NCBI GenBank assembly: GCA_050084515.1
Contig: CM114271.1
Location: forward strand, 27,032,001 to 27,096,000
Direction of reading: 5' to 3'
DNA length: 64,000 nt
Source of the DNA: Blasia pusilla
Lineage: Eukaryota
The position numbers and the translations under genes are program-made. Every line of letters starts with the position of its first letter. The stretch's first letter is position 1. Under the pieces are notes generated by a model. The model saw nothing but the letters and a program-made list of their open reading frames with translations, made no database searches and was not told the origin of the DNA. Below are positions 25,815 through 59,200 of this stretch, in pieces.

Positions 25815-26123
25815 TGTAGGAAATCAATTAGTCCAACGAAACAAATCATCAGAGTGCTGATCCAAGAATTGATCACACGGATCAATCCATACGAACGATC
25901 TAGATTAGATTAGGATCAATGTTCTGTTTATGAGCATTGATTACTGCTAGTAACGTTTCATCTTGCGAAACGATACATAGCTATGAGACATTTCTGAAGT
26001 GACACAGTTACCGTCACATTTTTTGATTACGGCTCTTAGTTTAGAGCAGACTTTACTACTTATGTATCGGCTTTTCAATCTATCAATACAGAGAACACAG
26101 AGAGTACAAACGCAATTCTCACA
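25815..26123 (+). repeat. Copia 5' LTR
   Basis: TG..CA ends, followed by the PBS, near-identical to 39681-40007. Confidence 0.95.
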
Positions 26124-29075
26124 TGGTATCAGAGCCCAGGACGCTGTCACAAAAATGTATCTGCAAGATGAATTGCAGACTCTTAAGATGAAAGAAGGCG
26201 ATAGTGTTACCAAACATGTCCATCAATTTAGGACATTGATTGATCAACTCCACGCTGCTGGATCGGTGACTACTGATGAAAATCAGTATCTTGCATTGAT
26301 GCGATCAATGCCCAATAGTTACCGCAACTTATTGACCTCATTGCGAGGTCAGAGTAACCTTACTTCGCAATCTGTGAACACTTTCCTTCTTCGGGAGGAG
26401 AAAATCATGCAGATGTAGACTGCTGAACCGTCCTCAGTTTTTTTTGTTGGACGAGGTTCTGCCCCTTTTCATTCGAAGTCCAAATTCAGCAATTCGAGGC
26501 AAGGAGGCTCCTTCAGAGGTTACGGTCGAGGCAAAGCTCCTCAGAAAGGTTTTGGTCCTTTCAAACCAGGATTTGTTCCTGCTTCTATGACGATTCCACA
26601 TGGCGAATCGTCCAATCATCAAGCTGATTGGCAGGCTTCATCCTCCAATCAGCAGAACACTTATAAGAAAATGAAGTGTTTCTACTGCAATTTGCAGTGG
26701 CATCATATTAAAGATTGCCGAAAACGTCTTGCAGATCAGCAAATGCAGTCCAGATTGTTTGCTCCAAAAGCAAATTTTACGCCTCATCTCTTCTTTACCG
26801 TTGCCTATTCAACTTCGGCTTCAGATATTCAAGATAACACATGGTATCTTGATACCGGTGCTACTCATCATATGGCCTCCTCCACTCATTACTTTTCCAA
26901 TTACACTCCGTATGAAAAATCTTCGTATGTTTTCCTAGGTGATAACTCTAGTCTAGAGATAAAAGGATCTGGACACGTTGAGATCCTTCTGACTAATGGT
27001 ATTCGATACATTCTTCGGAATGTTCTCTTTATACCAAGCTTGAAGAAAAAACTTTTCTCAGTCAAGCAACTAGACACTTCAGGAGGATTTGCCTTGATTC
27101 ACAACGGAAAGTGCATACTCCGTGATTCTACAGACCAGATCATCACAACATGTTATTTAATCAATGATTTGTACAAACTCGGACAAGCTGTTCTTCCACC
27201 CTCCCGATTTTCTCCCATTACAGTTGCCACCACGATTCTTCCCACGATCGCTGATCTGTGGCATCACCGTTTGGGTCACATCAGCGCCACTCGTGTTTCT
27301 CAACTTCAAAATCAGCAAAATGGCTGGCGGACTTCCACGGCATAATCCCTCTTAGATTTCTTCATGTCGAGACTGCCTACATGGCAAGCAAACTCGCAAA
27401 CCTTTTTCTAACACTTCTCCACTCTATAGAGCTCTCAATGTTTTAGAATTAATTCATACAGATATTTGCGGGCCTATTTCTCCCCCTACTCATTTGGGTT
27501 TTTGGTCTTTATTGACAATTTCTCCCGGTATACTACTGTTTACCTCCTCCATTACAAATCCGAAGGTTTTCCCCGTTTCACTCAATTTGTGGCTAATGTA
27601 GAGACACGACATCAACCTCGACGCATTCAAACATTGCGATCTGAAAATGGTGGGGAATTTAAGTCATCTGCTTTCTTAGACTTCAGCCATTCTCGAGGAA
27701 TCTCCAGGCAGTTCACTGTTCCCCACACACCACAACAAAATGGTGTTTCAAAAGGTAAGAAGAGAACTCTTGCTAATTCTGTCCATTCTATGCTTTTCCA
27801 TTCTGCTCTCCCCAAGACTTATTGGGGTGAAGCTTTGGTCACTGCTAATTATTTGCAAAATCGTCTTCCGAGCAAAGCATTTCCACTTTCCAAAACACCC
27901 TATGAGTTATGGTTTAATCGTAAACCTGTGTTATCTCATCTTCGTATTTTTGGAAGCCCTGCATTTGCTAACATCAATGATCCTCATTCAAAGTTGGATT
28001 TTCGTGACCGAGGAATGCATTTTCCTTGGTTACAAGTGACCAAAGCAAAGCCTTGCGTCTCGAGAGACCGAGAGACAAAACTATCATTCTCTCCCGTGAT
28101 GCTATAGTTCTTGAAGATCGATCGCTCAGACCACTCCATCTTCCGCTTCTTTCGATGCGTAAGATCCGCTATCGATCCGATCCTCTATTTTTCCGCTCAT
28201 CCCCTAATCCTCAAACTTCCTTGCCTATTCCTCGCTACTTCCCGATTATTCCCTCGGTGGGAACACCCTCTCCTTCCATGTCATCTTGGTGGGAGTTCAA
28301 CCTTTTCAAGTCCGCCACATCCGGAGGATATGCCTTCACCAACGGTCTCTTCCATCGCACACCCTGCACTGGTCATGGGTGTACCCATCTTTACTATGAA
28401 AGAAGACAACGAGCTCCTACTCCTCCTCTTGCTCAAAGAAAAAGTCCTCGCATTACTCGGGCTATTGAGCGTTACGATGCACTTATTGAAGCTGAGAAGA
28501 ACAAGAAGCGAGCTGCAGAGAAGCGTTGGGCCTTGCTCTCATCTACTTGTTCTTTTCTTGAACCCCAATCTTATGAAGAGGCTATCTCTAGACCTGACTC
28601 TTCACATTGGAAGGCTGCCATTTCTGCTGAACTTCAGAATATGGCTAGAATGAAGCTCGGGGGGGTCACTATGTGGAGGGCTCTACATCACCTACGACGT
28701 TTTAGGGTCTAGACCCCCTAACTTATAAGTGAAAAAATAATTTTTTCTTACCCTTATGTATTTTAAAGGAATCATTTTTCATTTTTGGTACCCCTAAAAT
28801 TCTTTAAGTAAAGCAATCACTTGAAATAAATAAGACCTTGAAAGAAAAGAAAAGCACCAACTTAAGTTAACATCCAACATGTTATCCTTACTTTATGACA
28901 AAGGGGAATTGAACCCCTAATTGAGCAAGAGGCTCAATCAGCCAATCTGTCATCCCCCTAGCCTACTCCCTCCCATTATCGTGCTCACAATTCAAGAGTG
29001 TCAAATACATTCTAAGCACACTCCATAAAAATATTTAATTTAACATATCTCAAACATAAAAAAAACTCACCAAGA

Positions 29076-32000
29076 TCAGCTCACACTCTGAATATATGTA
29101 GTCAAAGCATGTAAGTCAACTGAATCAAGTATGTATATTCTGTCTTGTACCCCTGATTTCATTGTCAAATTCACATTAGAGATCACCATTTCAATATCAA
29201 TCCATTGCACATCTATTGCATCATAACTGAACAAGGTTTTGGTGTTACCATGGCCGAAAGACTTATACCAATTACACATAATATGACAAATGCTTCCCTT
29301 TTGTCCAGGAGGAGGTACAGGCTTGTTTAACAAGTCCAAGGCCGTACGACGTTTTGACCAATGTGAACCATTCTTTTGAATCATAAACACAATACGCCCC
29401 AACCAATACTCTTTTTTTGCAACTCCTGCCTCCACTGCAAGTTGTGTCTCATGGTCAAATCAATATGGTTCAAATCTTCCTCAGTTCTGCTTGAACAGAT
29501 GCAAACACATGTCTTACTTCATGTCCTAATACTTCCATTTCAATGGATTTCGGATCAATGTCAATATCTATCTCTTCGTTATCTATTATGAAAGGTACAT
29601 TGATATCACAACTTTCCTCTACAACCCAAGAATCAATATGGTTCAAATCTTCCTCAGGGTCCTTAAACTCTGAAGACTCCCCAGTTGGCTGCTCATATAT
29701 TGGAGACACTATTGTGGATCGGTTATCTTCATGTTCTTCAACATCATCACATGACACTACTTCCCTTATTGAAGGTGAATGAGGCCATGTCTCGGCCTCC
29801 ACATCCCATGGATTCATCCACCACCTTCTCTTTGCAATTGGCAAGGAACTCCTTGGAGACATGTTCAACAACCTCAAAAGCTCTTTTGCTGCATCCAACC
29901 CTTCTTTAAGAGCATCAACAACCAACTCATTAGTCCCAACCAATGAATAATCAAATAGATTCGGAGCCTGGTCTCCTTCACCAAGAGGATGCAGTTTTGC
30001 CCAAATATGATCTTGCTTATGATGTGAACGACGTATCTTTAATCCTTCTCGGTCCATACTCTAGGCCAGCCAGTCGATTCACTCCTACTACACTATCTAA
30101 TAGAGATCCAAAGTCATAGTTTCTTTCATGACCACTCATGCCACCTACCTTGCTGAAAAAAATCTCACAACAATCAGATCCTAGCAAGTGAAATGGAACT
30201 TGAAGATATGGAAACTTGTCTCGAAATGCACAAACTAAGAGTACAATGAAATGGCAAGACATGTTGATATCATGGAAAGCTTGAATAGAGATCATATTTT
30301 TTTCTGTGACACATCGAGTATTCCTTGTCAAAGAATGGTCACCGTACCTCAACCATAGCCTCCACAGTCGGAGAAACCAAGATACCTTAGATGCCAATAC
30401 TATACGAGTTCTCAAGTCATGCTTCACAGAGAAGAAAATGTCGATGTAATCTGCACAAATCTCAAGGTACAACTTTGTCCCAAAACTTCTATCATGTCGA
30501 ACATCTTGCCGCTCAAACATGTGGTGTAGGCAAGCTTGGACTCTCCTAGATGCTATCCGTTGTGGGCCAGCCCAGTTCTGTCTGTCGGTCCTATTCACAT
30601 CATCCCAGTTCAAGCCATGCTCCTCAATTTTATAATGGTTATAAATTGACGTCACATAGGACAACGATGCGTGTTGGTCACCAAGCACTAGCATGGCAGC
30701 ACATCGGTCCAATGGGTTAATAGCCTTTTTCCCATTGTGAGGTGGATCTTGGTCTCCAAAGCCATACAAGTCTCCATTTGGAAGAATGGACACAGAATAC
30801 TGCCACCCTTCCCACCCTACTTTATACCTTGGAAAAGAACCATTCATACCAGTATAATCTTCCATCATTAATTTCCTACGACGAGCATCACCATCACTAG
30901 CATGCCCCAGTAAAGGACCAACATTGGCTTTGCAATATTCATCCCACATGGATTTCAGCTGCACCCAATGTTCCCTCACCCAATCTGCTTTGAATCGATT
31001 ACAAGTTGCGGTGGCACAGAGCGCCAATTTTGGCATTTTCTCATGCAAAGGATTCACAATTACTACTCTAGCATCAATACCTTTCGCATATTTCTCAAAA
31101 GTACTCACAATTTTATCATACCCTTCATTACCTTCCCCAACAAGTACTTCCAAGCCAAAAGAGCATGTATGTTCTTCCGAGGGACCACAAAAACCAATAA
31201 GCGTGTCATATTTAGCCTCCCATCTCTCACAACAGAAATATCAAGTTAGAACATAAACCCAATAGAAAACAATAAACATGACATATAAATGTGCAAAGTA
31301 ATATTATCATTATGTTAGAGCATACCCATACATATATCAAGACCAACTTTCTCCAAAGATTCTAACACACCTTGGCCTTTCTTTTATCCTTGTTTCATCC
31401 TCAGCGAACATTACAGGCACATCTCCCTCGATTCCAAGTAGTTGTTTTGATGCAAATAGTACTCGGGAGACCTCTTGAAATATCTCTTTTTGTAGCCCAG
31501 CTCTAAAGGGTGGTAGTTTTGCTCTATCACGTTTCAAGGTCTTCAGACTTGGCCCTCCCAAGTTTTCCTGAAAGCAGTGGGCAACTTGTCGGCCACCAAA
31601 TTGGAATATGGCTTGGGAAAAAGCTTTGGTTCTCTTATTGTAACGATAACCATTGGCCACTCTTTGCAAATTCTTAGCCACATCTTTCACGAAATCCCAC
31701 AACCCCTCCTTACCACCAAATGCCCCATCCCTATGTCCATTTACTACGTTCCTAAGAAAGAGTCTCAAATCTCTCCTATCTGCAGCTACTCCTAACATGT
31801 CTTCTAGCTTCTTTCGCCTAATACTCAAGGCACAAATTCTTTGTGATTGTTGTGCCAAAAGCCAACGTTGTCTCCTAAATTGAGTGTTCAATTTTCCCAC
31901 ATGCTCCCTCAACTCTGTCTTGGTCAAGTACTTCATGGCCATCCCTCTTTGAGTTGTCCTGCCTCCTCTATGCACTAAAGCTTCCGCTTCCCTGTGCACC

Positions 32001-33465
32001 CGACCACGAAAGTCATCCTCCCGCTTAATGGAGTCACAATGACTACAAGTGAGGTTCTCAAACCCTCCCCCATTACTTGACAATCTAGAGCAAAGCTTGT
32101 GCCTAAAACAACCTTGTATACATACAATTGACCTACTACTTGGGTTGAACACTTGCGCCAAGTGGTAAGCTCACAATCCCAAATAGTTCCTCATGTCGAT
32201 CATCTAGTATGGCCTTCACATCCATCAACTCTCCTCTCCATTGGACGGTTGACTTAAGCCCCAACAAAGCAAACTTAGTCCAAAATCAATGGAGGAAGCA
32301 AACCCACCTTTTCTCGAATCTGCTTCCTTCCTTGAAGGCATCGGGCTAAAGAATTTGGTAATGGAATTTTGAGACGAAATAAGTCCCTAGGATCTGGCTT
32401 CTTTGGTCTTCCCTTCTTCCAGCACCTCAAGACAAGTTGGGCAAAGGTGACCTCTCTAGTATCAAGAGCATCCAAGTGATCACGACTAACCAAGTGTTGT
32501 CGTAGATTATGCTCCAAATTGGCCTTTCTTGGGCACATGTCTGTGTGCAACTTGCCACAGATTATACATCATACCTTGAACAGGTATGACGTGTGTGCAA
32601 ACTGTGTATCAGCAACAGATGGCGTCATAGAGAACACTACTATCTCACCCCCAACCTCTACATTCATTTTCTCAACTATTCCTAAACCTACGGTGATCTG
32701 ATGTTCATGATCCCATTGAGGTTGTTGTATAATGTCACTAGGAGAAATCAATGTACTAGGTAGACCCCATCTCTTACAAAAATTGTCCTTGTGCTTAGGG
32801 TTGTTGAGATGCTTAGTCTTGAAATTGCTAAAGCAATTTGCAATTGATTTTAAAACTTGGGAATTAGCTGCATTCCCATAAGTCTCTCGACACTCTAAGC
32901 ACTCTAGGTGCCCTCGAACATCTTGCCCCTCATCCCACGTTCGCACTCTCCACTTATGCTCATCATATCCTTGTCGCTTTACCCAATCTTTAAGCTTGCT
33001 CCACTCTTCATTCCAACTCTTTGCTGCCACCTCACACATAAGCACTGACTCAAATGAACCTGTGACAGGCAATGTATTGACTACTTGCTCTTGGGTTGTG
33101 GCTTCGTATGTGATTGAGACCCAACATTTGTGTCCTCTATGATAGACACAGAGAAAGAGCAGCAGAGATGAATGCAAGGACACAATTGCAACCCCCAATA
33201 CATCCAGAGGCTTGTTGTGCAATCACAAAACACTCCCTTCAAGTTCACTAATCTCAATGAGGTTCTCAATAGGATGTCTAACTCTACCTGGTAGCCTATC
33301 ATCCCAAAAATCAAATTCAAAGTCAATCGCCCCTAGCACATCGAAAAGTGCGGAAGTCGGCCGTGTTTGTCCTTCTTTGAAGGACAACACACAAATTGGT
33401 ACATCATCCTTCCCTTCCGCAGTCTTTTCTACTAGTCTCACTGAGTTGGAACTAGGGTTTGCCAT
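29076..33465 (-). pseudogene. P-element-like transposase gene: N-terminal C2H2 fingers, RNase H-like DDE core with insertion domain, C-terminal domain; disrupted outside the core
   Basis: The core is ORF 31337-32161 spliced (GT..AG intron 31224-31370) to the ORF ending at 30017. Motifs: FAEDETRIK (D1), LIGFCG, HASDGDARR (D2), DQDPPHNGKK (DxxH), DRQNW, GTKLYL..DYIDIF and GSDCCEIFFS (E). Frameshifts and stops occur in the flanking parts. Confidence 0.75.
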
Positions 33466-33817
33466 TTGTACAAGGTGTCAAAGGCATTCAAACTGTCATA
33501 TATGTAGTTCAACCTGTCATGTACCACAAAAACAAACAAAAGAGGTCACAAATCAAAGTTTGTTATGCTTCTACAACAATTGATAGCCATACATAACATC
33601 AAATAACTATCCTCATTCCAACTTCAAGACTTAATCCATTTAATTCATTACAACCCAACCAAAACGTCCATTCAACATGAGTTATAGTTTTGAGTCTGAA
33701 GATACAAAACTCTTGAAAACATCAAAGTAATTTGTGCAAAATATTACACCTGAAATATGTAATGAGACTATAGACCCATTGTTCTTACCTACAAAATTTC
33801 TCTATCGTATTCAGTGA

Positions 33818-34513
33818 TTAAACCCAAGAGATATGTTGATAATTTGTAGTGCCTAATGTGGGGACAATTGGATGATCAGGGCAATAGATCATCCATCTGA
33901 TCTCATTATGTGCAACATGACGCCAAGATTCTCTGCCAGGTGTAAAACCTTCCTCCTTGCTCGCTGCCAAGCAACCCAAATGCCATGTCTTCGGATATCT
34001 CAAACATTGGACGACGTTTGCTAGATGCTCACTGCGATGCGGCATGTTGCATGCCACACATGTATGGAGAGGGCAACACTGTACATCAAGTGGCAAGCAT
34101 CCAAGGCAGAAGAAACGAACACAGAAAGGTTGGGGGCATTGTCTCATATTAGTTTGAATGGAAGCCATTCTACCACACTTGAAACATTTGTATGTCCCGG
34201 AGGTACACTCTAGACAATACCAAGGGTCGTTCACCTTATCCTTTGGAATGACCACTGCGGGGCAATGAGACACCGTCTGGCCAAATCTATGAACATGGTG
34301 AAATTGTCGATGGCAAAGCCCATCACAAATCACTAGATCTCCATGCAAATCGCAAATAGCACACAAATGAGGACTGCATTGTCGCAACTCAATATCTGAG
34401 AATAGGGGAATTTGTGGCAACCTCATGCTCATCTTCTTCCTAGAGTGTGGATTATTCTTGGCTTGCCCCTTGTACCTTGCCGTTATGGCTACTGGACATT
34501 TAAACATGGACAC
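33818..34513 (-). CDS. EDM2/NSD-like tandem PHD-finger protein carried by the transposon
   Basis: CAICDLHGDLVICDGLCHRQFH...WYCLEC...CFKCG...C...C.RFF...CPLHTCVAC...CLRYPKTWHLGCL...SW...MIYCPDH..PTLGT...HI follows the Cys/His pattern and C-terminal extension of the plant EDM2 PHD cluster. The 5' exons are unresolved. Confidence 0.7.
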   Translation of the reverse strand: MSMFKCPVAITARYKGQAKNNPHSRKKMSMRLPQIPLFSDIELRQCSPHLCAICDLHGDLVICDGLCHRQFHHVHRFGQTVSHCPAVVIPKDKVNDPWYCLECTSGTYKCFKCGRMASIQTNMRQCPQPFCVRFFCLGCLPLDVQCCPLHTCVACNMPHRSEHLANVVQCLRYPKTWHLGCLAASKEEGFTPGRESWRHVAHNEIRWMIYCPDHPIVPTLGTTNYQHISWV

Positions 34514-35247
34514 TGAATTAGTTATAACTTAACCAAATAGAAGATATAGGCATGCATAATTGTAGACAAACTAAAAGACTTAAAAGTCAATTGCTTAGAA
34601 CTCAACTAAATACCAACTCTCACAAAAATAAACTATGCCTGAAAAAGAAGTAGAATCCTTCCTAGGGTAGTTCTGAATGCCTGCTGCAAATGCTTTGAAA
34701 TGAGGGTCTGATAACACACAATGTAGAATAACCATAGAATAATTGTTTCTGCTAGCTCGAGAGAAGAAATAGGCTATAGACATAAACTCAACATCCCCAC
34801 ATGTTGAACACACCTCAAAGGCAGGTTGGATAGTTACATAAGACCACATTACCAATCTGTGCCCTTGTGACCAAGTGGACGGTACCAACTTTGGCCAGCA
34901 GGTACACACTAAGAAACAATTGGGTACTACTCTCATCCCACCCAAAAGGTAGAGAATTGCAAGAAGCGGCATGGATTTCTAGATGTACAACGTGGACGAG
35001 AAGTCTTCCCTTACTTCACAAAAGGGACATGATGCTGATAGCCTGAAGTGAAAGGTTGCAGAACCCCTATAGTTCCAATGACTCTATATGAGATGGGAAT
35101 AACAACAAAATCCTTGAATGGGGCACCGTGTGGGGAGCGGTAATTTGCTCGACGGGCCCCTTAAATGCATCATGCAGCCTCTCTCTCAAGGCTACGACAG
35201 GCACGACAGGAACTACGCAAGGCTACGACAGGCACTACTCATTGAGT

Positions 35248-35251
<4 letters not shown>

Positions 35252-35280
<29 letters not shown>
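35252..35280. repeat. (TC)n microsatellite
   Basis: Directly visible. Confidence 0.9.
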
Positions 35281-35282
<2 letters not shown>

Positions 35283-37599
35283 GATCCATCGCTTCACGCC
35301 GCCAACACAATGTGCATGGGTTGTTGCTAGCCAGCTAGCGCGGATAAAAAATCTTCCACCTCTAGAAGATCGTCCAGCTCCGTTTCTTGCTCGCACAGGA
35401 GCTCCACGAAAGAACCAAAATTGCTACGCAGTGTTCGCGGTGAGATTCTTGCTTCCTCTTACAGCATTCAGAGTCAGATTTTGCTTCCCCTCTCAACTTT
35501 CTAGAGTTAGATTTTTGCTTCCTCTCACAGCTTTTCGGAGTCGGATTTTCGCTTCCGCTCACAGCGTTCAAGGCCTTTCTCCACTTGAGAGAAGTAATGA
35601 CGACACATATATCCTTGAACCTTAGAGATTCTCCGTATCCTTCTAGTGCCTCCCTTGCAGCTTCCTCAGTTTGATCCGCATTCTTTTGCTTCCGCAAGAT
35701 TTCCCCAGACAGGTTCAACTTGGACCTAGAGGCTACCCATCTGTCCACAACATACCTCAGAGTCTTCTCGCACTGAGCCCAGTATGATCCTCAGTGGAAT
35801 TATCCTTGGAGATCTCTATATTCAACAGCCTCAGCTGCTCACCCAGAGATGAGTTCCTTTGACAGCATGAGGGGGATCTTGTCCGTTTTGAAATTAGAAT
35901 TGGACACAGCTTTTGTGCTTCTCACGAGAGCTATCATCCTCGGCTTGAGATGGAGAGGCATCGGAGTCTCTCAGCAAAATAGAAGAGCTTCTTAACGCTC
36001 AGGAATAAGCGGAAACTACACGAGAGGATCTCCGACAGGTCCTAACGCTTGCCTCAAAGCTGAAAGTAGAGACATTCAACCAAGGCTATGGTCACAAGGC
36101 TACGACAGGCACTACTTAATGAGTACAGTCTCTATGGGGTAGATTGATGAAGAAAACCACTTCTTCTAGATCAAGATAGCTAAGCAGGTGGGAATTCTGA
36201 ACAATATTTGCACAGCAATTTTATAGTTCAGGCCCAATGCACTCCTAGGGAACTTCCCCTATGAGGCTCACTCGGGTTCTATTGACAGAACCACCAACAA
36301 CGGGGACATCCTCATTATAGGTGATGTCAAGAGAAGAATGGGCAGCAACCAAGCTCCAATCTATATGCCAACCAGGAATATGGAGGCACATGCTAAAAAA
36401 CATCATCCCTTAAATTCGTCTCTGAAGGAACTTCACCGCAACTCCAATGCACATCGGAAGACACGTAAAAGCTAAATTGGTTGGCTTGGTGAATGCCGAT
36501 CGCATCTTGCAAAACAAACTGCAATCCTTGGCGACTCTAGTGGCGCTTTCAAAGCCCAAATGCCCCCTCTGGTGAAGACATAGAGAGCTATTCTCCGCGC
36601 CTTTCACTTTACGTAAAGACATGGACACTAAAACAATTGTTGGACATATACGTGTGACACTATTAGTGTGAATGTTGGGCTCATCGGAAGAAGATGCCCA
36701 ATTCCTTTCACCCACGCTCTGGTTGGGCTACTCAAATTTGAGCTTGCCCGATGTGCAAGTCTATTGATGGCAAGACAAGGCGATGGTGATCTCGAACAAT
36801 GCGTGAGCGCGCGTAAACCTTTTGTCGAGAGAAATTTGGACCAGCGGAAGATCGGTGAGCTTTGAAATGCGGTTGCTTCACTCTCACAGGGGCCATGTGA
36901 ATCTGAGGTGGCTACATCACTAAAAACCATAATGGTCCACTCCGTCCATTGTCACCCTTGTAGGAAATGAAATCAATGCCAATTTAGTAGGTCAGCAACC
37001 ACTACCCACCATCGTGACTAGCTTTGGCTTTCAGTCGAGACACGTGAGGCTGCTCACTGCACCCGTTAAACTTGGCCGAGTGTACATCGCCTGTAGCTAG
37101 TTGATGGTATGCTTTGTCTAAATCGACTGAAATCTCTGAAGGGTGACATGCAATTAGACAGAATTAGAGATCTTTCGGATTTGGAAGCGTACAGTTGCCA
37201 AGAAATGGAAGGGAACCAGTGATGAAGGGCGTGTACTAAGTGGGCATTCTAACGCGAGATAAGAAAGTGATTGTAAACGACCGTTGGCAATATGCTAAGA
37301 GCTTACCAATACACAAAGCTGGATGAATTTGTCGCCGAACCGATGAAAGAGGTTGGATTGCAATAGAATTAGGCTCAACTCGTTCTCTGGCTATCAGCAA
37401 TGGAGACTCTCTCGATTAGGCTCAGGTGGAAGAACATCTCGAAACTGGAAGATGATCTATCCGTGAAGAAGCTGGACGCATTCATATTCCGACACAACAA
37501 ACTGGAAAAGAAGAAGAACCATTCATACCTAAAGTTTTTTGGATTCATCACCCCCCGGCTGACAAAAAAAAAAAATCCACTCACCTTCCAATCGACGCC

Positions 37600-37684
37600 C
37601 TCTCGCCTTACAAAATCAGGCCACTCCCGATCACTTTCGCTCTCGCCTTACAAAATCAGGCCACTCCCGATCACTTTCGCTCTC
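37600..37684. repeat. Perfect 40-bp tandem duplication inside the transposon
   Basis: CTCTCGCCTTACAAAATCAGGCCACTCCCGATCACTTTCG occurs twice in tandem. Confidence 0.9.
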
Positions 37685-38165
37685 CTGCTGCGCCACTCCA
37701 CTCGAGTCACGCTAAGCCACGCTCTCCTGCCCTGAGAAAGTTGTGCACTCGGAAGGGGCTTCAAGTTGCGGCTCAATTTGGCGCTCAAAGCTGGTCTTCG
37801 AAGGCCAAAACCCTAGACCCAACAAACCCAACTAAAATTGAGAGGGAAACTTCAAAGTAAGCACTTCCTTCTTCCCTCTAAAACTTTTCCATAAAATTGA
37901 TTTTTTTAGCTAGGGAAGCTAATTTTTGTAAAACAATAATTTAATATATGTAGATGTGACATGTATAAACCCTATCTTATCTTAACATTTTCCATGGAAG
38001 GAAGACTAATAAAAAATACCTATTGTTCTTATAAGAGTTTGATGGAATAAATTATGCCCTATTATTCTTCCACAAAACTTAATAAGTCTTCCGATGGACG
38101 CAATTAAAAAACCCCTAACTTTTTCGCACGTGATGGGGCATTTGTGTGGAAGTGAGACCCCCGAG

Positions 38166-38671
38166 CACGTAGAGAGCAAGGATCAGAAAATTTGAGTCCT
38201 TGTTCAGAATGTAAATATTAGAGTCAACAGTGGTGCTGACAAAACCAATGTCGAGTAAAACATAGTGACATCGTTCATACCGCATATGGGCTGATTGCTT
38301 CAAACCATAAATGGACCTTTCGAGAAGGCAGACCAAGTTATTATGGGGAACTAGCAAGCCTGGAGGAAGGGCCATGTAGATCTTGTGTTGCAAGAATCCA
38401 TATAGAAAAGTAGTGATTACATCTAATTGATGTAAGTCCACGTTGAAATAAGCAGCGATAGCAATTACAATACGAAGAGATTGAAGTTTAACAGTAGGAG
38501 AAAAGGTCTCGTCATAATCAAGATCAGGAACTTGAGTAAATCCTTTAGCAACCAGACGGGCTGTGTACTTGTGGATCGTGCCATCCACATGAGGTTTCAT
38601 TTAAAAAACCCAACGGCAACCAATTGTGCTTTGATTAGGAGGAAGGGGAACCAAAGTACAAGCCTTCATTC
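38166..38671 (-). other. Inverted segment of the Copia RT coding region
   Basis: The RT N-terminal half (TLVPLPP..KYTARLVAKGFTQ..SIYGLKQS..LALYV) reads on the minus strand. The rest of pol reads on the plus strand and resumes at LYVDD near 38675. Confidence 0.95.
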
Positions 38672-39680
38672 CTCTCTACGTGGATGACACTTTCATCGCC
38701 AACTCCATTCGTTTTGCGCTGCTTTATTTTGTCAAAACGAAGCTCCTCCAAGAGTTTGAAATGACTGATCTCGGTGAAGCTTATCATGTTTTGGGAATTC
38801 ATATCCAACGAGACCAACAACAAGGATGGATCAGGCTCAACCAGACGACTTACATCACCAACAAACTCAAACAGTTCAACATGCTAGGCTGCAAACCTAT
38901 CTCCACTCCTTTGGATTTTGGCCTTCATCTTAGTCAAGATCAATCTCATGTTCATCTTGATGACATTGCAGCAATGTCTTCTATTCCTTATAAAAGTGCT
39001 ACAGGAAGTTTAATGTGGGCAATGGTGTGCACTCGCCCCGATATTGCCTATTCTGTTAGCACTGTTGCACACTTTATGACCAATCCTGGTCCTATACACT
39101 AGACTGATGTCAAACGTATTTTCAGGTATCTCCAAGGGACAAAACATTACTTTCTCCAATATCAACGCTCATCTATTCCTTTTCATCTTCAAAGATATTC
39201 TGATGCTGCCTATGGAGATAAAATCGACTCCCAAAAATCTACTAGCGGATTTTGCTTTCTCCTTGAAGGAAGAGCAATTAGTTGGGCAAGTAGAAAACAA
39301 AAGTCAGTTGCTCTTTCAAGTACCGAGTCTGAGTACATTGCAATGACTAAAACTAGCACTGAAGCTATTTGGATCAGAAGATTACTTTACGAAATTGGTT
39401 TTACTCAGAAGATAACCGAGATCTTCTGTGACAACCAAAGTGCTATTGCTTTGGTCAGTTCTACAAAACATCATGACCGCACCAAACACATTGACATTCA
39501 ATACCACTATATCAAAGATCAAGTATCAAGTGGCAAAATTATTCTGACCTATATTTCAACTGCAAAGATGATTGCAGACATTTTTACTAAGGGTTTACAG
39601 AAAGGACCTCATTAGAAACATACTGAATCTCTAGGGTTAACTAGTAATCAAAATGGCTGATTTGTTCCCCTGAGTGGGAG

Positions 39681-41653: not shown

Positions 41654-44600
41654 TGTCACATCATAGTTAGCCGACAAATACAATTCATAAGATTGTTCAA
41701 GCATAAATCCTTCCTTAGTGTTTATATGAGGTTAGTGATAACTCAATTGCGTCGAGATTGTCATTTTGAACAAACCCTCTATTTTGCTATTTTGGGCTAG
41801 GTGACCCATTGATGGGTTCAACGATCATCATGTTGCCATTTTAGGCTATTTTTGGGGGAAGAGCTCTTTTAGCCCTTCCCAAGGGTATAAAGGCGGGAGA
41901 GATGGCTTTCATTGGCCATCTCTCTCATATTTAGCCTTTAGAGCATTCATCCTTTTAGGGTTTCATAGAAGTTTGAGTACTAGAGTTTGGATTCCCTTAT
42001 GGCAGAGGGTGGATGTGGCTTGATACAGAGATATACATTTGGGAGTGAAGTTGATTGTGTGAGTTATTTTTACGAGATGACGTCCGTACTCCTTAGAGTG
42101 GAGACATGACACACTTGGATTTACACATTTATTATGTGGCAGTGTTCGAAGGAAGGTATTAGAATGCTAAATCTCTTTGGAGGGATTTAGCTCAAGGTTA
42201 GTTATAGTGTTGTTGGCAATCATACAAATGCATCAGTACCTCTATGTTGGGAGAGATGAGATCACACAACGATATCCTAATTTATTACTAGAATTTGTAA
42301 TATAATACAGGAATACTAGTGTACACTATCTTTTGGTATTTCTTTTTTGGGGCATAAGACCTAGATAGAGTTGCCACCATTGATTTGGTAATCTCTAGAT
42401 CGCCCTGCTAAAGTCATTAATTGGATTTTCGAGGACTTGGTTTGTATGATCTGAGGTCGAACATGGGATTGAGCATATTTTGGGATATGTTGTGTGTATT
42501 GTAGCACATAACATGCTAGATGTTATTGCAAGGCACATGTCGTGCGCATACACATCGCTACACAACATACATCGTTATCACCGAACACACACGCAAACAC
42601 TCACGATCCCATGCTAACTCATGGCATCCAAACAACGAGACAAGAAGTACTAAAATATCTCCAATAAAGTAAGATCCAATCTCTCTCTACACCATCTCAT
42701 ACCATAGCTCTCAAAAGTGTGCATTCTCTCTCATGTCAAACCAAACCCACTCTCTTGATGAGAGACTTGGGTTACACTCACAAGGCAAGGGACCATAGCT
42801 CCGCCGCCTTATGCCAAGAGGTTCAACAAAGAGAGAATGGTCTCTCAAGTTCTCTCTCCTTGAGGTATACCCATCCCCTCTCCCAAGCTCTCTCCATAGT
42901 AACCTATTCTCCCAAGTCACCTCCTTGGCTCTTGACCTAATGTAGGAGGTCAAGGGCCACTTACCAAAAATATAAAGTCGATCATATACTCAAAATGGTA
43001 ATTACCTAAAATAGTAAGTTTCTCAATATGGCTCCAAATGAGCCTAAACGAAGGGGAAACCTGCTCTCTCAAGTTTCCCGGGGCCTCAACAGGTTACCCT
43101 CAACCTACTGAGCATATCCTCCACTATTCATGTAGGCGCTCTACTACATCTCACTGATCTATCCTAAAAGATGTGACATTTGTCGTGCATATACACATCG
43201 CTGTCACCAAACACACACACAAACGCGCACGATCCCATCCTAACTCATGGCATCCAAACAAAGAGACAAGAAGTACTAAAATATCTCCAATCGCTCCCCT
43301 AGTTGGTGGTTAGGTCCCTCTAATTCCAGATAGCCATCTATCCCTACCTACCATGACATACATCTCTCGCACACTAAGAGCAAGAAAGGCCAGGTGCTCA
43401 TGTGGCCCCATCATTAGTCGCCTTCTTGTCATCCATATCACAAAAGAAGTCGGAATCAAAACGAACCTGTATCTCCTCTATGTACATCTGGGATATATCC
43501 ATCGTCCTCGAGGAATCCTAGTGAGAGGTGGCGTCAGACATGCCATATGCCAACCTCTCGAACATCCATCACAGACTAGCATCGTGGCCGCACCAAGGGC
43601 AGAACCACACAACATACAACGCAAGCCTGCAAGAACTACTGTTAAGCTCGGATCTACTATACCATCAATGTTAGGAAGATGATATGGCGCACAATTACGC
43701 ACATGGTCCTTCCATACCATACCATCGTGCCCCTCCAGCAAGAGAACACTGGATGGCAAAACGTCACGCACTCTCAGGATAGTGCGCCCTGCAGTCACAT
43801 CCAATGTCGTCGATGTCGTTTGCTGAAAGAAGACATAATCTCTCTGATGAAACCTCTGGATAGTTGGTCGATAACCACCACCCCGAATAGTCACATACCT
43901 CAACGTATTCCGATGCTACGCAATCCCCAAGTTCTCGAACGCCATGGGCATCACTCTCCGAAATAACTCAGCTCTCTGAGAACATGCTCGCATCCATTCA
44001 TCTAGGTCATCAAGGTCTAGCACCTCACCAGCATCTCGACGAATGGCCGCAGGTAAATCTGGCTCTCAGCCATAAAGTAGCAAGTACGGTGAAAAAGACG
44101 CTAAGGATGCCTGCCTAATGAATCTCTATCCCATCGTCTGCACAACTCTCTCCGCTAATCCATCCGCCTCGAGACGATCTCGCGAAGTCGTGCGGTGGTT
44201 GATTAGCGCGTGATCACACAAGGTCTGGAACTCACCGCAAATCGGGTACTGATGCTCAACACTCACCGGTCGCCATAATGACTCAGCACTCTGTCAAGGA
44301 AGGCATAACCTACTCCCTCACTCGCTTTGTCAGGAAATACCTCGATCTACTTCGAGAAGTGCTCGACCATCATCAACACATAACGACTGTGACGCTCTGT
44401 CAAGGCAAAGGTCCTGCAAAATCCAAACTCCATCTATATCCTAAGCCCATGATCAGTAATGGATGCAATTGTGGAGTCGCAACATTGAACAATGCTCAGA
44501 CCCGATCACACACCATGCACCTGGCAAAAAACTGTTGAACGTCAATCTGCATGCCTCGCCACCAATACTGAATCTGGAGCAAGTTGTACGTCCGCTTCAT

Positions 44601-47600
44601 CCCAAAGTGATCCAACTCCTCATGGGCATGCTGCACTAGTCGTGCTCTCTGCAAAGGATGCAACACTACGTGTACTCTGCCATCCTCCCAAACCCTCAAA
44701 ATATGTGTCCCCTCCCAACGGAACTGTCTGGCCCGCTGTAGGATCTGATCCCGCTCTCTAGCACCCACGGTGCTCACAACGCTACCAGTACAAAGGTACT
44801 CCAAGACTTCTCCATCATCATGAATATCTCGGCCACTTGTCATGTCATCGCTATCCTCGGGATCCAAGGACTTTCCACTAGACCTCGCCATTGAAGTCTC
44901 CACACTCTAGCTCTCCATAGCCAACATGCCTAAATAGGCTGACGCGTGCCATTGTGGCAGTGACTCCTCATCACTCTCTCCATGCCATCGAGCTCCAATC
45001 GCATCTTGCTGACTTGGGCATGGGTTACGACTCAACCCATCTACATCCTAGTTGAGCGTCCCAGGTCTATGTACCACATGAAAATCATACTCCTGCAACA
45101 AGAGAGCCCATCTCGCAAGCTTCTGTGTAAGCTTGTCGGACTCCATCAACCACTTCGGTGGTTGATGATTAGTAATGATGGTAAAGGGATTGCCGAATAA
45201 GGAACACCTCAAATGCCAGACAGCCCACACTGCATCCAAGCACTCACCCTTATACGAGTTGTACTTCGCCTCTACAGCGTTGTTCGAGCGGCTAGCGTAA
45301 GCCACCACGAACTCTCTACCCTCATCATTATGTTGGGTGAGCACCGCTCCAAGCCCCAACATGCTCCAATATGTGTGCAACTGGAAAGGATGCCCCCTGA
45401 TCGGTATCCTCAAGATGGGCGTGGACGTCAACCTGTCCTTGAGCAACTGAAATGCTCGCTCTTACTCATCCCCCTAGTGCCACTCGTGATCCACCTTGGT
45501 CAGCAAGGTTAGCGGCTTCACAATCGAAGTGAATCCCTTGACGTACTGCCGATAGGAGTTCGCCAATCCCATGAATGCACGAACACGGCTCACATCTGTA
45601 GGGTGTGGAATGCGTGAGGTAGCCTCTACCTTCGTTTGCTGAACACCAAGGCCCCGTGGGTATATCGTATGACTCAAGTACTCAATCTGGTCGTAGAAGA
45701 ACTTGCATTTGCCTGGATGTAGCTTCAGCCCATGTAATTGCAATCATCGAAACACCTCCTCTAGATGTCGCTCATGCTCCTCAACCGTGGCGCTAAAGAC
45801 TATGATGTCATAAATATAACACCTAGAAAAATCCAGATCAGCCAAGATCCTATCCATGACCCTCTGAAACTCAATTGGGGCATTCTTTAACCCAAATGGT
45901 AAGAACCGCCACTGATACAAATAATCCTTCCCGTGAGGATCGATGCCCCAAAATGTCGTCTTTTGCATGTCCTCCAATCTGATAGGCAGCTGATGGTATT
46001 CGGCTCGCAAATCCAATGAACTGAAGAGCTTTGCGTGACCAATTGCATCAAAGATCTCCTCAGGGGTGGACAATGCATACCTATCGCACTTGGCATACCT
46101 ATCGGACTCGATGACTCTCAGCCTCGCGAGTAATCCCTGAATCATTGATCCCAAACATGCGGCACTCGATCTTCACTCTCCCTCCCCGAGACGTATAACG
46201 TACGACAACAAGCGGTGTGGTGCCGCAAATCGACCAAGCTATCATCTCATCGACAACCTACCCTCAACTCTAGACATCCCACACAGGTCTTTGTCCCCTA
46301 AACCACATTCATAAATGATGCTCTCAGCATCCACACAACCCAATATCCACAAATAAACTACCCAAATCCTTGAATCCCTTATGCGTGCAGGATAAAGGAC
46401 CAAAATAGGTAACCTGAACACATATTCATGTCGCTCCTCAACAACTACATATCTCGATCCCAACTCGGTCGTGGAGACAACTCTTCCAATGAGCAAGTCA
46501 TACTCCTCCCGTACTGACGCTGCTCAAAACTCCTCGATAGATTGTGCGGTTCCAACAGAACGGTGCGGCATTGCAGGTGGCACGGAACAACTACGAACGG
46601 AACGGCCCTCGATGGTGGGATGCGGCACTCGGCGGCATACCCTCCTCAATCAACAATAAACCCACACTCTGCTCCACAATAACGGAGCAACTCGTTGATG
46701 GAGACGGTGTGGTGCATCCATGAGCGGCACGGCACGGCAATCGACGGCGCGTTGCGGCTACGGGCGTCACGGTACGGTACTCGATAGTTGTCGAGCGGCT
46801 ACCAATCACAACATAACAACATGAAATCAAAACGAAAACACCATAACCGGAGGTCATCTACCATCACTGGTTAATGACGAAACAACGATGATGGTGGCGG
46901 CCAAAATTGCGTACGTGGTGGGACTTAAGTCAGAAAATCAATGAACGTTGTGGAAGACCTTCCACTCTCTAACGGCGGCAATGGCAACCAAAGGGTGGAC
47001 AACGGACGGTGGACCATTGACGATGATGGTTGACCGTTGATGGTGACGGCCGACCGGTGACGGTGATGGTTGACCATCAACGGTAGACCGTTGATGGTGA
47101 CTATGACGTCGACGGTCGCCGCCGGCGTGGCGGTTGGTTTGGGGTTTGAACAATTTAACCCTAAAAATTGCCTAGCAATGGCAATTTTGCAAGATTGACC
47201 ATAACTTTTTGCTCACAACTCAAAATTGCACACTATTTCTTGCACAACCTGCACAACTTTATGATCTACAACAACGTCAAAAAATATTTAGAATCAGACA
47301 TTCCAATAAAAACCGACAGGGATTGTCATAAAGCCCAATGTCTTTTTCTCTTAGACAAAATTTGGCAGCGCTTCTGCCCTGATTTCTCCCAACCAAAATG
47401 TAAAACCTATAAAAATACAAATCAACAAGCTACATGGTGCTCTCAAGAGCACCGGTATGGGGCAACCCGCCCCCATAATCAATCCCTATCATAAATTGGG
47501 CAGCGCTTCCGCGCGCCACTCTTCCACACGAAAAATCGACAAATGCAAAGAACAATCAAAATAGCCCTTGCTCCGGTGAGCACTCCCATGAGCTGCTGAA

Positions 47601-55289: not shown

Positions 55290-56250
55290 TGGAGGAGGGT
55301 ATTCGAGTGTTAGATCTCTTTGGAGGGATTAGCACCGGGTTAGCTGTTGTTTTGCAGGCACGAGTGCGAGTACAACAGTACCTGTATGTGGAGAGTGATG
55401 ATGTTGCGAGGCGCGTCTCACTATGACATGTGGCGCACTTACGCCTATGTTTTCCCGACTTATTGTCTGTGTCCGCGGTACAGGGGTACCAGAGTTCCCT
55501 ACCCAGGGATATTTCGTTGTTGGGGGCGCAGGACTTAGAGCGGGTAGGGACCATTGATTTGGTCATTTCCGATTGGCCATGTGAGGGCCAATCGAGTGTT
55601 GGACGAGGAAGCGGGTTGGCTGACACTCGGTCTAGATTGTTTTGGGAGATGTTGAGGGTCTTACGGCGATTCAGAGAGCTGGTCTCATTCTCCAGCCTAC
55701 ATTCTGGAGAATGTGCCCATCTTAGGAGACTCCAGGTCACGGGTGGTGACGAGTGCTCATCAGGTGCGTGCTTGGATCGGCCCAAGCAGTATTCTTGGAT
55801 GGGGCGAGTGTAGGTTCTAGAGCCCATCGCCCGCGTCTATGGTGGACCAACTTGGTGCCTCATGCGGGGTTACGGAGGGCGTATGCGAGAGTGGAGCGCC
55901 CCTCCCATTTGTTAGTGGATTCCATTCTAGATCCAGGTCGTCGATCACAAGTAGAGAGGCACTATGATCGACCACCGCTGACTGTGGTCAACAGGGTAGG
56001 CAGGCCGCGGGCAGCCTTTCCCACGTTTGTGAGTTTTCCCGCTTCCTATGCATACAAGGAGGCCGATCCTGGCTTGGTTTGGGATGACCAGGTTCAGAGG
56101 TTGGTGGAGCCCAACGCTGACGAGAGAGAGCGGGCGATGGGATTTCCCACAGGAGGGACGGCAGTCTTGTCAGTATCAGAGGCATCATGACGCCATGTCT
56201 TGGGTCAAGCGATGGACCTGAACTACTTGATATGGATCTTCAGCTTGGGA
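55290..56250 (+). pseudogene. C5-cytosine DNA methyltransferase domain (DNMT3-like motif pattern) within retroelement pol
   Basis: Motifs in order: I IRVLDLFGGISTG (55301), II YLYVE, IV IDLVISDWPCEG (55571), V SRLFWE, VI YILENV (55701), VIII AHRPRLWWTN (55825), IX ERERAMGFP (56122), X LGQAM (56200). Interrupted by stops and frameshifts. Confidence 0.92.
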
Positions 56251-59200
56251 GTGGCTGAGCAGCGTCGGATGAGATCGCGACAGATCACAACGGTTGTGTT
56301 GGTGAGCCCCATGCCTACCGAGACAGTGGAGGCAGTGGCTAGGGGCGAGACCCGAGGAGATCGACACACCAGAGGAGATCGGGAGAGACACCCTTGGACT
56401 TCTTGGGATGTTTTGCAGGTACGCCACGAGATGATAGCCACAGCATCAAGCGTAGTTCCGAGCACTGCACGTGGAGGAGATCAGAATTTGCAGTTGGCAG
56501 CAGAAGAGCAGCCGAGTGTTGTTGTTCAAGATTGGATTGCACCATAGCAACCACCGAAACCCGCGCCAGAGAGTGTTACCATAGTCACGATCAAGACTTG
56601 GGAGCCAGATATGGGCCCTACATTGACAGGAGGAGAGCGGCACCGGATACATCAGTTCCTCAGGAGTTATAGGAGCTACTTTGCATTTAGCATGGAGGAT
56701 TTGGGTACGCTGAAGGGACCAGGGATCCGCATTGAGTTGTCAAGTGACACGCCGATCTTCCGACGACCCTACAGGTACAGTGATATGGAGAGGGCTCTGA
56801 TTCAAAGTAGGAGCTAGGACTTGGTCGGAGGAGGACTAGTGAAGATGTCCCATGGGGAGTATGCATTTGCCATTGTCATGCCCGCCAAGAAGGATGTGCA
56901 TGGCAACTGGACAGATAGGCGGATGTGTGGGGATTACCGACCTATCAATCGACAGACGAAGTCCGATAGTTATGCCATGCCCACCCTTGAGGAGATCTTT
57001 GATGCGATTGGTCACACAAAGGTCTTCAGTTCATTGGATTTGCGAGCCGGATACCATCAACTGCCTATCAGATTGGAGGACAGGCAGAAGATGGCATTTT
57101 GGGGCATCGATCCTCACGGGAAAGATTTTTTGTACCAGTGGTGGTTCTTACCATTTGGGTTAAAGAACGCCCCGACTGAGTTTCAAAGGGTCATGGATAG
57201 GATCTTGGCTGGTCTGGATTTTGCTAGGTGTTATATTGATGACATCATAGTCTTTAGCGCCACGGTTGAGAGCATGAGCGACATCTAGAGGAGGTGTTTC
57301 GACGATTGCAATTACAAGGGCTGAAGCTACATCTAGGCAAGTGCAAGTTCTTCTACAACCAGATTGAGTACTTGGGTCATACAATATACCCAGGGGGCCT
57401 TGGTGTTCAGCATTAAAAGGTAGAGGCTATCTCACGCATTCCACGCCCTACAGATGTGAGTCGTGTTTGCGCATTCATGGGATTGGCAAACTTCTATCGG
57501 CGGTACGTTAAGGGATTCAATTCAATTGTGAAGCCCCTGACCTTGCTAACAAAGGTGGATCATGAGTGGCACTCGGGGGATGAGCAAGAGAAAGCATTTC
57601 AGTTGCTCAAGGATAGGTTGACGTCTGCGCCCATCTTGAGGAGACCGAACCGGGGGCGTCCTTTCCAGTTGCACATAGATTGGAGCATGTAAGGGCTTGG
57701 AGCGGTGCTCACCCAACATGATGATGAGGGTAGAGAGTTTGTGGTGGCTTATGCTAGCCGCTCGAACAATGCTGCAGAGGTGAAGTACAACTCGTATGAG
57801 GGTGAGTGCTTGGCTGCGGTGTGGGCTGTCACGCATTTTAGGTGTTACTTATTCGGCAACCCCTTTACCATCATCACTGATCATCAACCACTTTAGTGGT
57901 TGATGGAGTCCGGTGGTTATCGACCAACTATCCGGAGGTTTCATCAGGGAGATTATGTCTACTTGCAGCAGACGGCACCGACGACGTTGTATGTGACTGC
58001 AGGGTGCACTATCTTGAGAGTGCGTGACGTTTTTCCATCCGGTGTTCTCTTGCTGGAGGGACGCGATGGTATGGTATGGAAGGACCATGTGCGTAATTGT
58101 GCACCATATCACCTTCCTAATATTGATGGTATAGTAGATCCGAGCTTAGCAGTAGTTCCTGCAGGGTTGTATGTTGTGTGGTTCTGCCCCTGGTGCGGCT
58201 ACGATGCTAGTCTATGATGGTTGTTCGAGAGGTTGGCATATGGCATGTTTGACGCCACCTCTCACTAGGGTTCCTTGGGGACGATGGATGTGTCCCAGAT
58301 GTACATAGAGGAGATACTAGGTAGGTTTCAATCCCGACTTTTTCTCTGACATGGATGACACGAAGGCGACTAACGATGGGGCCACATGAGCACCCAACCT
58401 TCTTGCTCTTAGCGTCTGAGAGATGTATGTCATGGTAGGTAGGGATAGATGGCTATCAGCAGTTAGCGGGACATAACCACCAGCTAGGGGGGCAATTGGA
58501 GATATTTTGGTACTTCTTGTCTCGTTGTTTGGATGCCATGAGTTAGCATGGGATCGTGCGTGTTTGTGTGTGTGTTCGGTGACAACGATGTATGTTGTGT
58601 AGCAATGTGTATGTGCACGACAACTGTCACGTCCTTTAGGATAGATCGGTGAGATCTAGTAGAGCGTCTTCAAGAGTAGTGTAGGACATGCCTAGGAGGT
58701 CGAGGATGACCTACTGAGGCCCCGTGAAACCTGCTCTCTCAGGTTTCCCCTTCGTTTTGGCTCATTTGGAGCCATATTGAGGAACTTACTATTTTAGGTA
58801 ACTACCATTTTGAGTATATGATAGACTTTCTATTTTTGTTAAGTGGCCATTGACCTCCTACATCAGGTCAATAGCCAAGGAGGTGACTTGGGAGAATAGG
58901 TTACCATGGAGAAAGCTTGGGAGAGGGGAGGGGTATATATCCCAAGGAGAGAGAGAGCTTGAGAGCTCATTCTCTCTTTGTTGAATCTCTTGGCATGAGG
59001 CGGCGGAGCTATGGTGCCTTGCCTTGTGAGTGTAACCCAAGCCTCTCATTAGGCGAGTGGGTTTGGTTTGACATGAGAGAAAGTGCACACCTTTGAGAGC
59101 TATGGTGTGAGATTGTGTAGAGAGAGATTGGATCTTACTTTATTGGAGATATTTTGGTACATCTTGTCTCGTTGTTTGGATGCCATGAGTTAGTATGGGA

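Follow-up and report, generated by a model that had tools for sequence, protein, structure and literature searches.

An EDM2-type triple PHD cassette as a candidate second gene of a P-like transposon in Blasia pusilla

Does a cut-and-paste transposon of Blasia pusilla carry its own histone-reading protein? The question arises in a 64,000-nucleotide stretch of the genome (assembly GCA_050084515.1, contig CM114271.1, positions 27,032,001 to 27,096,000 of the forward strand; hereafter the window), which is eukaryotic and transposon-rich. An earlier note, made from the letters alone, had described a Cys/His-rich open reading frame (ORF) beside a P-like transposase as a captured cassette resembling the PHD cluster of EDM2. 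EDM2 is reported to bind H3K9me2 and to work at transposon heterochromatin, to alter H3K9me2, transcript levels or both at >2,000 transposable elements (TEs), and to promote full-length transcripts of TE-containing genes (PMC7529245). We call the small reading frame ORF1 and the transposase ORF2. With moderate confidence, we favour the reading that ORF1 belongs to a two-gene P-superfamily transposon, in which an EDM2-like cassette was captured long ago, has been kept and would couple the element to chromatin state.

ORF1 occupies a stop-to-stop frame of 236 codons on the minus strand (33818..34528, from the ORF listing of the window). Its first ATG, at 34507, gives a protein of 229 residues that ends at a TAA stop (33818-33820), which is nearly the same as the 231 residues at 33818-34513 named in the earlier note. 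We estimated that at ~42% GC about 6/100 codons would be stops, so 236 open codons are very unlikely to arise by chance. The product, a small and probably nuclear protein, begins with a basic tail, with 48 residues before the first PHD finger, and 24 Cys/His at zinc-ligand positions then form three consecutive PHD-type modules. The C-terminal end reads ...MIYCPDHPIVPTLGTTNYQHISWV, with IYCPDHPIVPTLGTTNYQHISWV as the final residues; the tail motif IYC..H....LGT...HI is present and the stop codon follows 3 residues past it. The Cys/His-rich frame with this tail was thus correctly described, and so was its setting: ORF1 lies upstream of the transposase frames (~33477 down to 29076) on the same strand, across a gap of ~350 bp. 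Its parts are as follows.

33818..34507, minus strand: ORF1, stand-alone triple-PHD protein (ORF listing, HMMER, alignment, model)
34205..34363, minus strand: PHD finger 1, residues 49-101, C4HC3 pattern, with a weak Pfam PHD-1st_NSD match inside
34064..34186, minus strand: PHD finger 2, residues 108-148, PHD_NSD-type (alignment, Pfam matches of relatives)
33872..34060, minus strand: PHD finger 3 / C5HCH-like module, residues 150-212; Pfam PHDvar_NSD spans residues 157-193
to ~33830, minus strand: tail IYC..H....LGT...HI, 3' of the third module (alignment)
33995..33997, minus strand: codon TAT, Tyr171, a lost zinc ligand; Cys in 8/9 clade sequences that have a residue there

We searched 1.84 billion representative sequences exhaustively with ORF1 using HMMER, and obtained 184 matches at E<=1e-3, 30 at E<=1e-10 and 2 at E<=1e-30. 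Pfam architectures were scanned for 26 of the 150 listed matches, and ten of these 26 combine DNMT1-RFD with NSD-type PHD families, the EDM2 architecture. Most of the ten are 1,170-1,400 residues long; their RFD domain is N-terminal and their cassette spans roughly residues 220-440. NCBI names one of the ten, P0073, 'protein ENHANCED DOWNY MILDEW 2-like [Iris pallida]', and 64/119 other relatives listed with it also bear the EDM2 name. Pairwise BLASTP aligned ORF1 residues 47-226 with residues 221-428 of P0073 at 29% identity (E 3e-22), tail included, and HMMER aligned proteins of EDM2 name or architecture over ORF1 residues ~47-234. In the Protein Atlas the only matches were NSD-like or PHD clusters of Streptophyta, with a best score of 0.92. 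ORF1 compared by sequence with PDB chains gave chance-level matches only (E 0.5-0.7). These findings bear out the EDM2/NSD similarity claimed in the earlier note, and judged by sequence ORF1 is an EDM2/NSD-type triple PHD cassette, that is, an EDM2-type module. It is not an EDM2 orthologue, because the RFD domain gave no match in ORF1 and the whole C-terminal half of EDM2 is missing, including the region of PF26055, a family listed for most of 120 EDM2 relatives.

The predicted fold agrees with this assignment. An AlphaFold (AF2) model of ORF1, built on a 29-sequence alignment, had a mean predicted local distance difference test score (pLDDT) of 85.6 and a predicted template modelling score (pTM) of 0.78. 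Foldseek placed the PHD5-C5HCH tandems of NSD1/2/3 best, with probability 1.00 and a target-normalised template modelling score (TM) of 0.59-0.63. VIA-align gave Z 5.5-5.9 for the NSD3 and NSD2 tandems, 4.8 for NSD1 and 3.4 for the next entry; the NSD superpositions had a root-mean-square deviation of 2.5-2.9 over 80-85 residues. The model thus supports an NSD-type PHD5-C5HCH tandem fold for ORF1, a match of moderate strength. The NSD1/NSD2/NSD3 tandem (4gng, 4gnd, 9gbf, 2naa) is the best structural counterpart of the second and third modules, and the NSD3 PDB entry is, by its title, a complex with an H3K9me3 peptide. NSD proteins differ from ORF1 in being animal SET-domain methyltransferases, and identity is 20-25% at these moderate Z values of 5.5-5.9.

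Is this gene part of a transposon? ORF1 lies within a 9,510-bp unit nested in the reverse transcriptase (RT) gene of a Copia-type element.

25987..28655, plus strand: left part of the Copia-type element (gag, protease, integrase, start of RT), broken at 28655
28656..28670, plus strand: terminal inverted repeat, 3' end of the transposon, directly after the Copia break at 28655
28656..38165, minus strand: whole transposon copy, 9,510 bp (termini and Copia break points)
29076..33477, minus strand: ORF2, P-like DDE transposase, a pseudogene here (ORF listing, alignment of relatives, model of a relative)
34859..37746, no strand: internal low-depth stretch of ~2.9 kb (DNA-run depth; boundaries known to ~360 bp)
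38151..38165, minus strand: terminal inverted repeat, 5' end of the transposon, 13/15 identical to the other end, abutting the inverted Copia RT piece
38166..38663, minus strand: next 498 bp of the same Copia RT, inverted; Copia resumes on the plus strand from ~38672
38664..38671, no strand: last 8 bp of the left Copia part (28648-28655), repeated here in inverted orientation; the 8 letters fit either side of the joint

The 15-nt terminus had only two matches at <=3 mismatches in the 64 kb, both exactly at the Copia break points, and subterminal similarity was also present beside the 15-nt termini. Other copies of the Copia element join 28655 directly to 38663 on the opposite strand, as seen in contigs of two DNA runs and reads of two RNA runs. 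Because the termini sit at Copia breaks that other copies join directly, 28656-38165 is inserted DNA with inverted termini, and ORF1 is inside it. ORF1 as a host gene at its native locus is thereby excluded, and its description as cargo of the transposon holds: it lies between inverted termini, and the whole unit is nested in Copia. We also considered a shorter element with a terminus near 34860, and rejected it on finding there no inverted match of the left end and no third terminal 15-mer.

Sequencing depth was high and continuous over 28722-34858 in two DNA runs, which takes in the transposase, ORF1 and ~350 bp upstream, and it was high again over 37747-38107, the 5' terminal region. Over most of 34859-37746 the depth was near zero in both runs, save at a repeat (36086-36133), and this stretch is probably private to the window copy, as nested or acquired DNA. 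In each DNA run, 2-4 different contigs overlay the ORF1 positions and as many as 12 the 3' end of the element. All contigs over the ORF1 region differ from the window copy at listed sites; they are therefore other copies. One contig per DNA run joins 30482 to 33729, skipping 3,246 bp, with 28 nt on its shorter side. It represents an internally deleted element copy in which the N-terminal two thirds of the transposase are missing, and its break lies 89 bp downstream of the ORF1 stop.

Direct repeats do not flank the element: in this one copy, 8 bp of the left flank recur inverted, and so do 11 nt of the right flank (38672-38682), together spanning 38664-38682. We read the 8 bp at 38664-38671 as an 8-bp target duplication in inverted orientation. 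The 498-bp Copia inversion looks like the work of the transposon itself, by a one-ended or hybrid-end insertion with 8-bp target cuts. Insertions of the one-ended or hybrid-end kind have been described for P elements.

Within the low-depth stretch, a motif of ~48 nt occurs twice (36086-36133 and 35218-35256), the two copies being 90% alike and beside CT/GA runs. Its depth was 300-370 in both RNA sequencing (RNA-seq) runs and 250-380 in the DNA runs, and thousands of reads from it continue into unrelated sequence on both sides. It had no Rfam match, and Rfam found none at E<=0.1 over 34500-38200. The motif is either a short repeat of very high abundance or one end of some abundant element.

We then assessed the transposase. 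The ORF2 frames (~33477 to 29076, minus strand) align with relatives of 770-1,530 residues. The closest come from the liverworts Riccia sorocarpa, R. fluitans and Calypogeia fissa, whose genomes supplied P0005, P0006, P0012, P0016, P0017 and P0019. ORF2 has two C2H2/BED-like fingers (C..C...H...H) in its N-terminal part and the catalytic motifs AEDET, SDGD and CE.FFS, and the D/D/E-type motifs SDGD..RR, D..H..KK and E..FS..G are invariant in 18 transposase relatives. Domain searches gave little: Pfam had no match at E<=0.01 in 16 relatives, and at E<=5 only marginal TNP-like matches (E 0.012-0.13, each in 1/18 relatives; TNP-like_GBD E 0.13). No THAP domain was found in the 18 relatives at E<=5 or in the window pieces, and a profile of the family found nothing in PDB (best E 1.2).

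The fold evidence comes from the relative P0005 and not from the broken window copy. P0005 is 52% identical to the window transposase over a 544-column core segment, and its model has a pLDDT of 71.8. Foldseek matched this model best to the Drosophila P element transposase 6p5a (E 8.4e-10; TM 0.71 target-normalised over 511 columns) and second to 6pe2 (E 2.4e-9), the top two spanning 511-516 columns, with RAG1, Transib and Hermes far behind 6p5a. The model of this relative supports a P-like ORF2 with an RNase H-like DDE core interrupted by a large (GTP-binding) insertion domain, in keeping with the P-like label that the transposon had been given. The window copy carries an in-frame stop at 32569-32571, at a conserved column, and a frameshift near 30050, where contigs of other copies are one base shorter. 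A stop-rich segment at ~31241-31378 is absent from all aligned relatives and is likely an intron. Two parts of the transposase alone (30527-30887 and 31610-32331) had patchy low RNA-seq cover, with a mean of 1-11 and nearly all first mates on the plus strand; in a stranded library of the usual kind, this would be expected if some member of the family were transcribed in sense.

Splicing or fusion of ORF1 to the transposase had been raised in the earlier note, and neither was found. ORF2 has its own N-terminus near 33465, aligned with the N-termini of the full-length relatives P0012 and P0013; transposase sequence occurs in 0/150 listed PHD matches (E<=1e-3); and the close homologues P0001 and P0002 are stand-alone proteins of 224 and 217 residues that start and stop at the same places as ORF1. 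ORF1 is therefore a separate gene and not an exon of ORF2, and an ORF1 fused or spliced to the transposase is ruled out. None of the 18 transposase relatives has a PHD domain; the full-length P0012 and P0013 lack the cassette, and different N-termini are present in the long relatives P0011-P0014. When ORF1 was compared by BLASTP with every protein retrieved, all matches beyond its clade had E>1. A complex prediction of ORF1 residues 33-229 with P0005 gave no answer (score 0.00; no controls; N-terminal 400 residues of the transposase left out).

Has the cassette been kept as a gene? In a tree of 116 cassettes, a quick search without bootstrap that left out rows with <170 matched profile positions, the window ORF and seven short stand-alone ORFs shared one branch, apart from all rows of EDM2 architecture. 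This branch had a support of 96 in the Shimodaira-Hasegawa-like approximate likelihood ratio test (SH-aLRT) and a length of 1.12 substitutions/site. Ten clade members are 34-58% identical to the window ORF. Across ten clade members the 24 zinc-ligand columns are 95.6% pairwise identical (830/868), against 36.2% (1975/5456) for the other columns of residues 44-229, and the clade keeps full-length ORFs with their own start, basic tail and stop at the same place. Since the ligand columns are so much better conserved than the rest and the clade is old and diverse, the alignment points to a gene kept by selection over a long time rather than to a fresh passive capture. The earlier note had allowed that the cassette might exist in this copy only and evolve neutrally; the 2-4 contigs per run, the diversified clade and the conserved ligands speak otherwise. 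P0027, P0028 and P0034 each lack one zinc ligand.

The window copy itself is a dead, decayed relic, with a zinc ligand gone, the transposase broken, ~2.9 kb of foreign DNA inside and an inversion at its flank. A scan of metagenomes found one close ORF1 homologue (L001, whose contig is too short for a neighbouring transposase to be visible) and two that were distant. In L001, a soil-type contig of 1.5 kb, the homologue at 739-1420 is 54% identical to ORF1 and frameshifted after the first finger, and the database protein P0031 is the first half of this homologue. Viral contigs scanned with ORF1 and the transposase held no homologue.

What might such a protein do? A triple PHD cassette would have come long ago from an EDM2-like gene of the host, leaving that gene's RFD domain and C-terminal half behind, and would have persisted as a gene ever since, within a clade of short stand-alone proteins that has diversified. 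Its product would bind a state of the histone H3 tail and so tie the element to chromatin, and it might guide or license integration into particular heterochromatic, TE-rich chromatin. Because the protein consists of a basic tail and a cassette of the kind that reads histone tails, binding of H3 tails in the nucleus is predicted, and this is the safest statement. Beyond it, guiding or licensing of integration would be the most likely role, by analogy with chromoviral chromodomains or the RAG2 PHD with RAG1, and a role against silencing the next most likely. The position of the window copy inside a Copia RT is consistent with heterochromatin targeting, as a single case. More tentatively, and with doubt, we suggest that a P-superfamily lineage of liverworts may long have carried an EDM2-derived reader as a second subunit that senses H3 methylation and either steers integration or blunts the EDM2-like pathway. 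If true, such a lineage would parallel RAG1-RAG2(PHD) and chromoviral chromodomains in a cut-and-paste element of plants, and the transposon would have stolen the very module that its host uses to manage transposon heterochromatin.

Several results weigh against a kept second gene of the transposon. In Pfam the window ORF stays below threshold (PHDvar_NSD 20.8 bits and PHD-1st_NSD 17.5 bits, cut-off 27); the clade members P0027 and P0030 exceed the Pfam cut-offs. No EDM2 PHD structure appeared among the PDB sequence and Foldseek matches of ORF1. In two RNA-seq runs (~6/100 and ~12/100 of their reads), the ORF1 bins had a mean depth of 0-0.57, and the Copia flanks a mean of 9-33. The window copy is inactive, since it has lost one zinc ligand and its transposase is broken. 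Between ORF1 and the 5' terminal region lies the 2.9-kb low-copy stretch, and ORF1 may have entered this copy secondarily. Linkage of ORF1 and transposase was seen in this genome only, other clade members being known only as proteins or on short contigs, so that P0001 (2.3-kb contig), P0002 (1.6-kb contig) and L001 (1.5 kb) could be host genes.

Three other explanations compete with integration guidance by a long-kept reader. ORF1 may be an anti-silencing factor, its cassette occupying marks read by the host's EDM2-like or silencing machinery, as a decoy, a dominant negative or a recruiter of partners; this would keep the element transcribed, or let its long transposase transcript run to completion through heterochromatin. 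The cassette is indeed homologous to that of EDM2, a reader domain alone would suffice as a decoy with no need to bind the transposase, and transposon-encoded anti-silencing proteins exist, VANC of VANDAL/Hiun being one (PMC6446971, PMC10398659). However, ORF1 lacks every EDM2 part outside the PHD cassette and cannot itself do EDM2's job, a histone-mark decoy would act genome-wide rather than on its own element, unlike the sequence-specific VANC, and ORF1 expression was not seen in the two RNA-seq runs. We regard this explanation as unlikely, though it is the foremost of the three.

The other two question whether ORF1 serves the transposon at all. That the short PHD proteins form a host gene family, possibly domesticated, from which this element or this copy alone picked up a member recently, is in our view improbable. 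P0001, P0002, P0026-P0031 and P0034 are known without genomic context, the 18 transposase relatives have no PHD domain, and low-copy DNA lies between ORF1 and the 5' terminal region. However, ORF1 shares the multi-contig, high-depth profile of the transposase without a break over 28722-34858, both genomic copies seen at the DNA level (window and L001) are damaged, as is usual for transposons, and a separate upstream gene is not expected within predicted transposase proteins. Slightly less probable still is a passive, functionless capture, in which ORF1 would be a transduplicated host fragment as in Pack-MULEs, open by chance. The lost zinc ligand and dead element, the absence of RNA over ORF1 and the frameshift in the L001 homologue would suit such a fragment, and with about one disruption per few hundred codons in ORF2, 229 codons could be open by luck. 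Neutral decay, however, is not expected to leave full-length ORFs with the same start, tail and stop and ligand columns at 95.6% identity against 36.2% elsewhere, in a clade as old and diverse as this one (about 34-59% identity, stem 1.12, SH-aLRT 96).

In the literature, taken without Repbase and subscription journals, we found no report of an EDM2-type triple PHD gene in a P-like or other transposon, and none of the combination seen here, such a cassette as a separate small gene of a land-plant P-like element. A transposon that keeps an EDM2-type module would, if confirmed, illustrate clearly how a mobile element can borrow the chromatin machinery of its host. It would offer a simple two-gene system for the effects of a histone reader on cut-and-paste transposition (integration-site choice, escape from silencing, transcript completion), broaden the plant P superfamily to include elements that have a second gene directed at chromatin, and supply a minimal natural EDM2-type PHD cassette of ~190 residues for binding studies.

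Elsewhere in the window, a Gypsy-type element on the minus strand (43481-46172) matches RVT_1, RT_RNaseH and Integrase_H2C2, and an ORF downstream of its integrase (43481-43915) holds a canonical PHD finger (PF00628, E 1.4e-9), in the place where chromoviruses carry a chromodomain. A second Gypsy-like element on the plus strand (55427-58302) has RVT_1 at 56818-57285, RNase H at 57417-57893 and a PHD-like stretch at 58165-58302 (tblastn with P0152). Its upstream ORF (55427-55810) matches the C-5 DNA methylase family PF00145 (E 1.2e-5, 25.4 bits, cut-off 22), and this element is probably the second TE family with an epigenetic module that the earlier note had mentioned. At 5383-7707, minus strand, three ORF pieces match the core of class II aminoacyl-tRNA synthetases (tRNA-synt_2b, E 1.6e-9 to 5.5e-19) and represent host-gene exons to the left of the transposon-rich region.

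How does the element compare with known systems? With EDM2 and EDM2-like proteins, ORF1 shares the order of the three PHD modules, the Pfam trio PHD-1st_NSD, PHD_NSD and PHDvar_NSD, and the tail YC..H.I...LGTP.R.HI.F. It differs in length (229 residues against ~1,200-1,330), in lacking the N-terminal DNMT1-RFD and the PF26055 half, in its short linkers, in a Cys of its clade where EDM2-like proteins have the His of the FYH motif in the second PHD finger, and in being transposon-borne and in a separate clade. The best-scoring long relatives of ORF1 (E 4e-19 to 2e-12) are P0032, P0033, P0036, P0037 and P0044, bryophyte-type proteins of 620-770 residues with an RFD-like N-terminal region and the cassette at the very C-terminus. 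Like ORF1 they end just past the HI/HV.RFP tail; unlike it they have 440-510 extra N-terminal residues, and they fall outside its clade in the tree. The donor gene of ORF1 plausibly resembled this type.

With the Drosophila P element transposase and THAP9, the family shares an RNase H core with a large insertion domain, as modelled for its relative. P elements make an 8-bp target duplication, and the 8 bp found again in inverted orientation at the one window copy would fit this. The P element has 31-nt termini, in contrast to 15 nt here, and the window element has no Pfam THAP or Tnp_P_element match, N-terminal fingers of C2H2/BED-like type and a second gene. Other mobile elements are also equipped with a chromatin-directed protein or domain of their own, and chromodomains in chromoviral integrases are a familiar case. 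Published papers further describe the RAG2 PHD finger that accompanies RAG1 (PMC12337333), and the PHD finger of Rehavkus transposases and the VANDAL anti-silencing protein VANC (PMC6446971). In comparison with RAG2, the chromodomains, Rehavkus and VANC, ORF1 stands out because it comprises the complete triple cassette of EDM2 type, forms a small gene of its own and is carried by a P-like element in a land plant.

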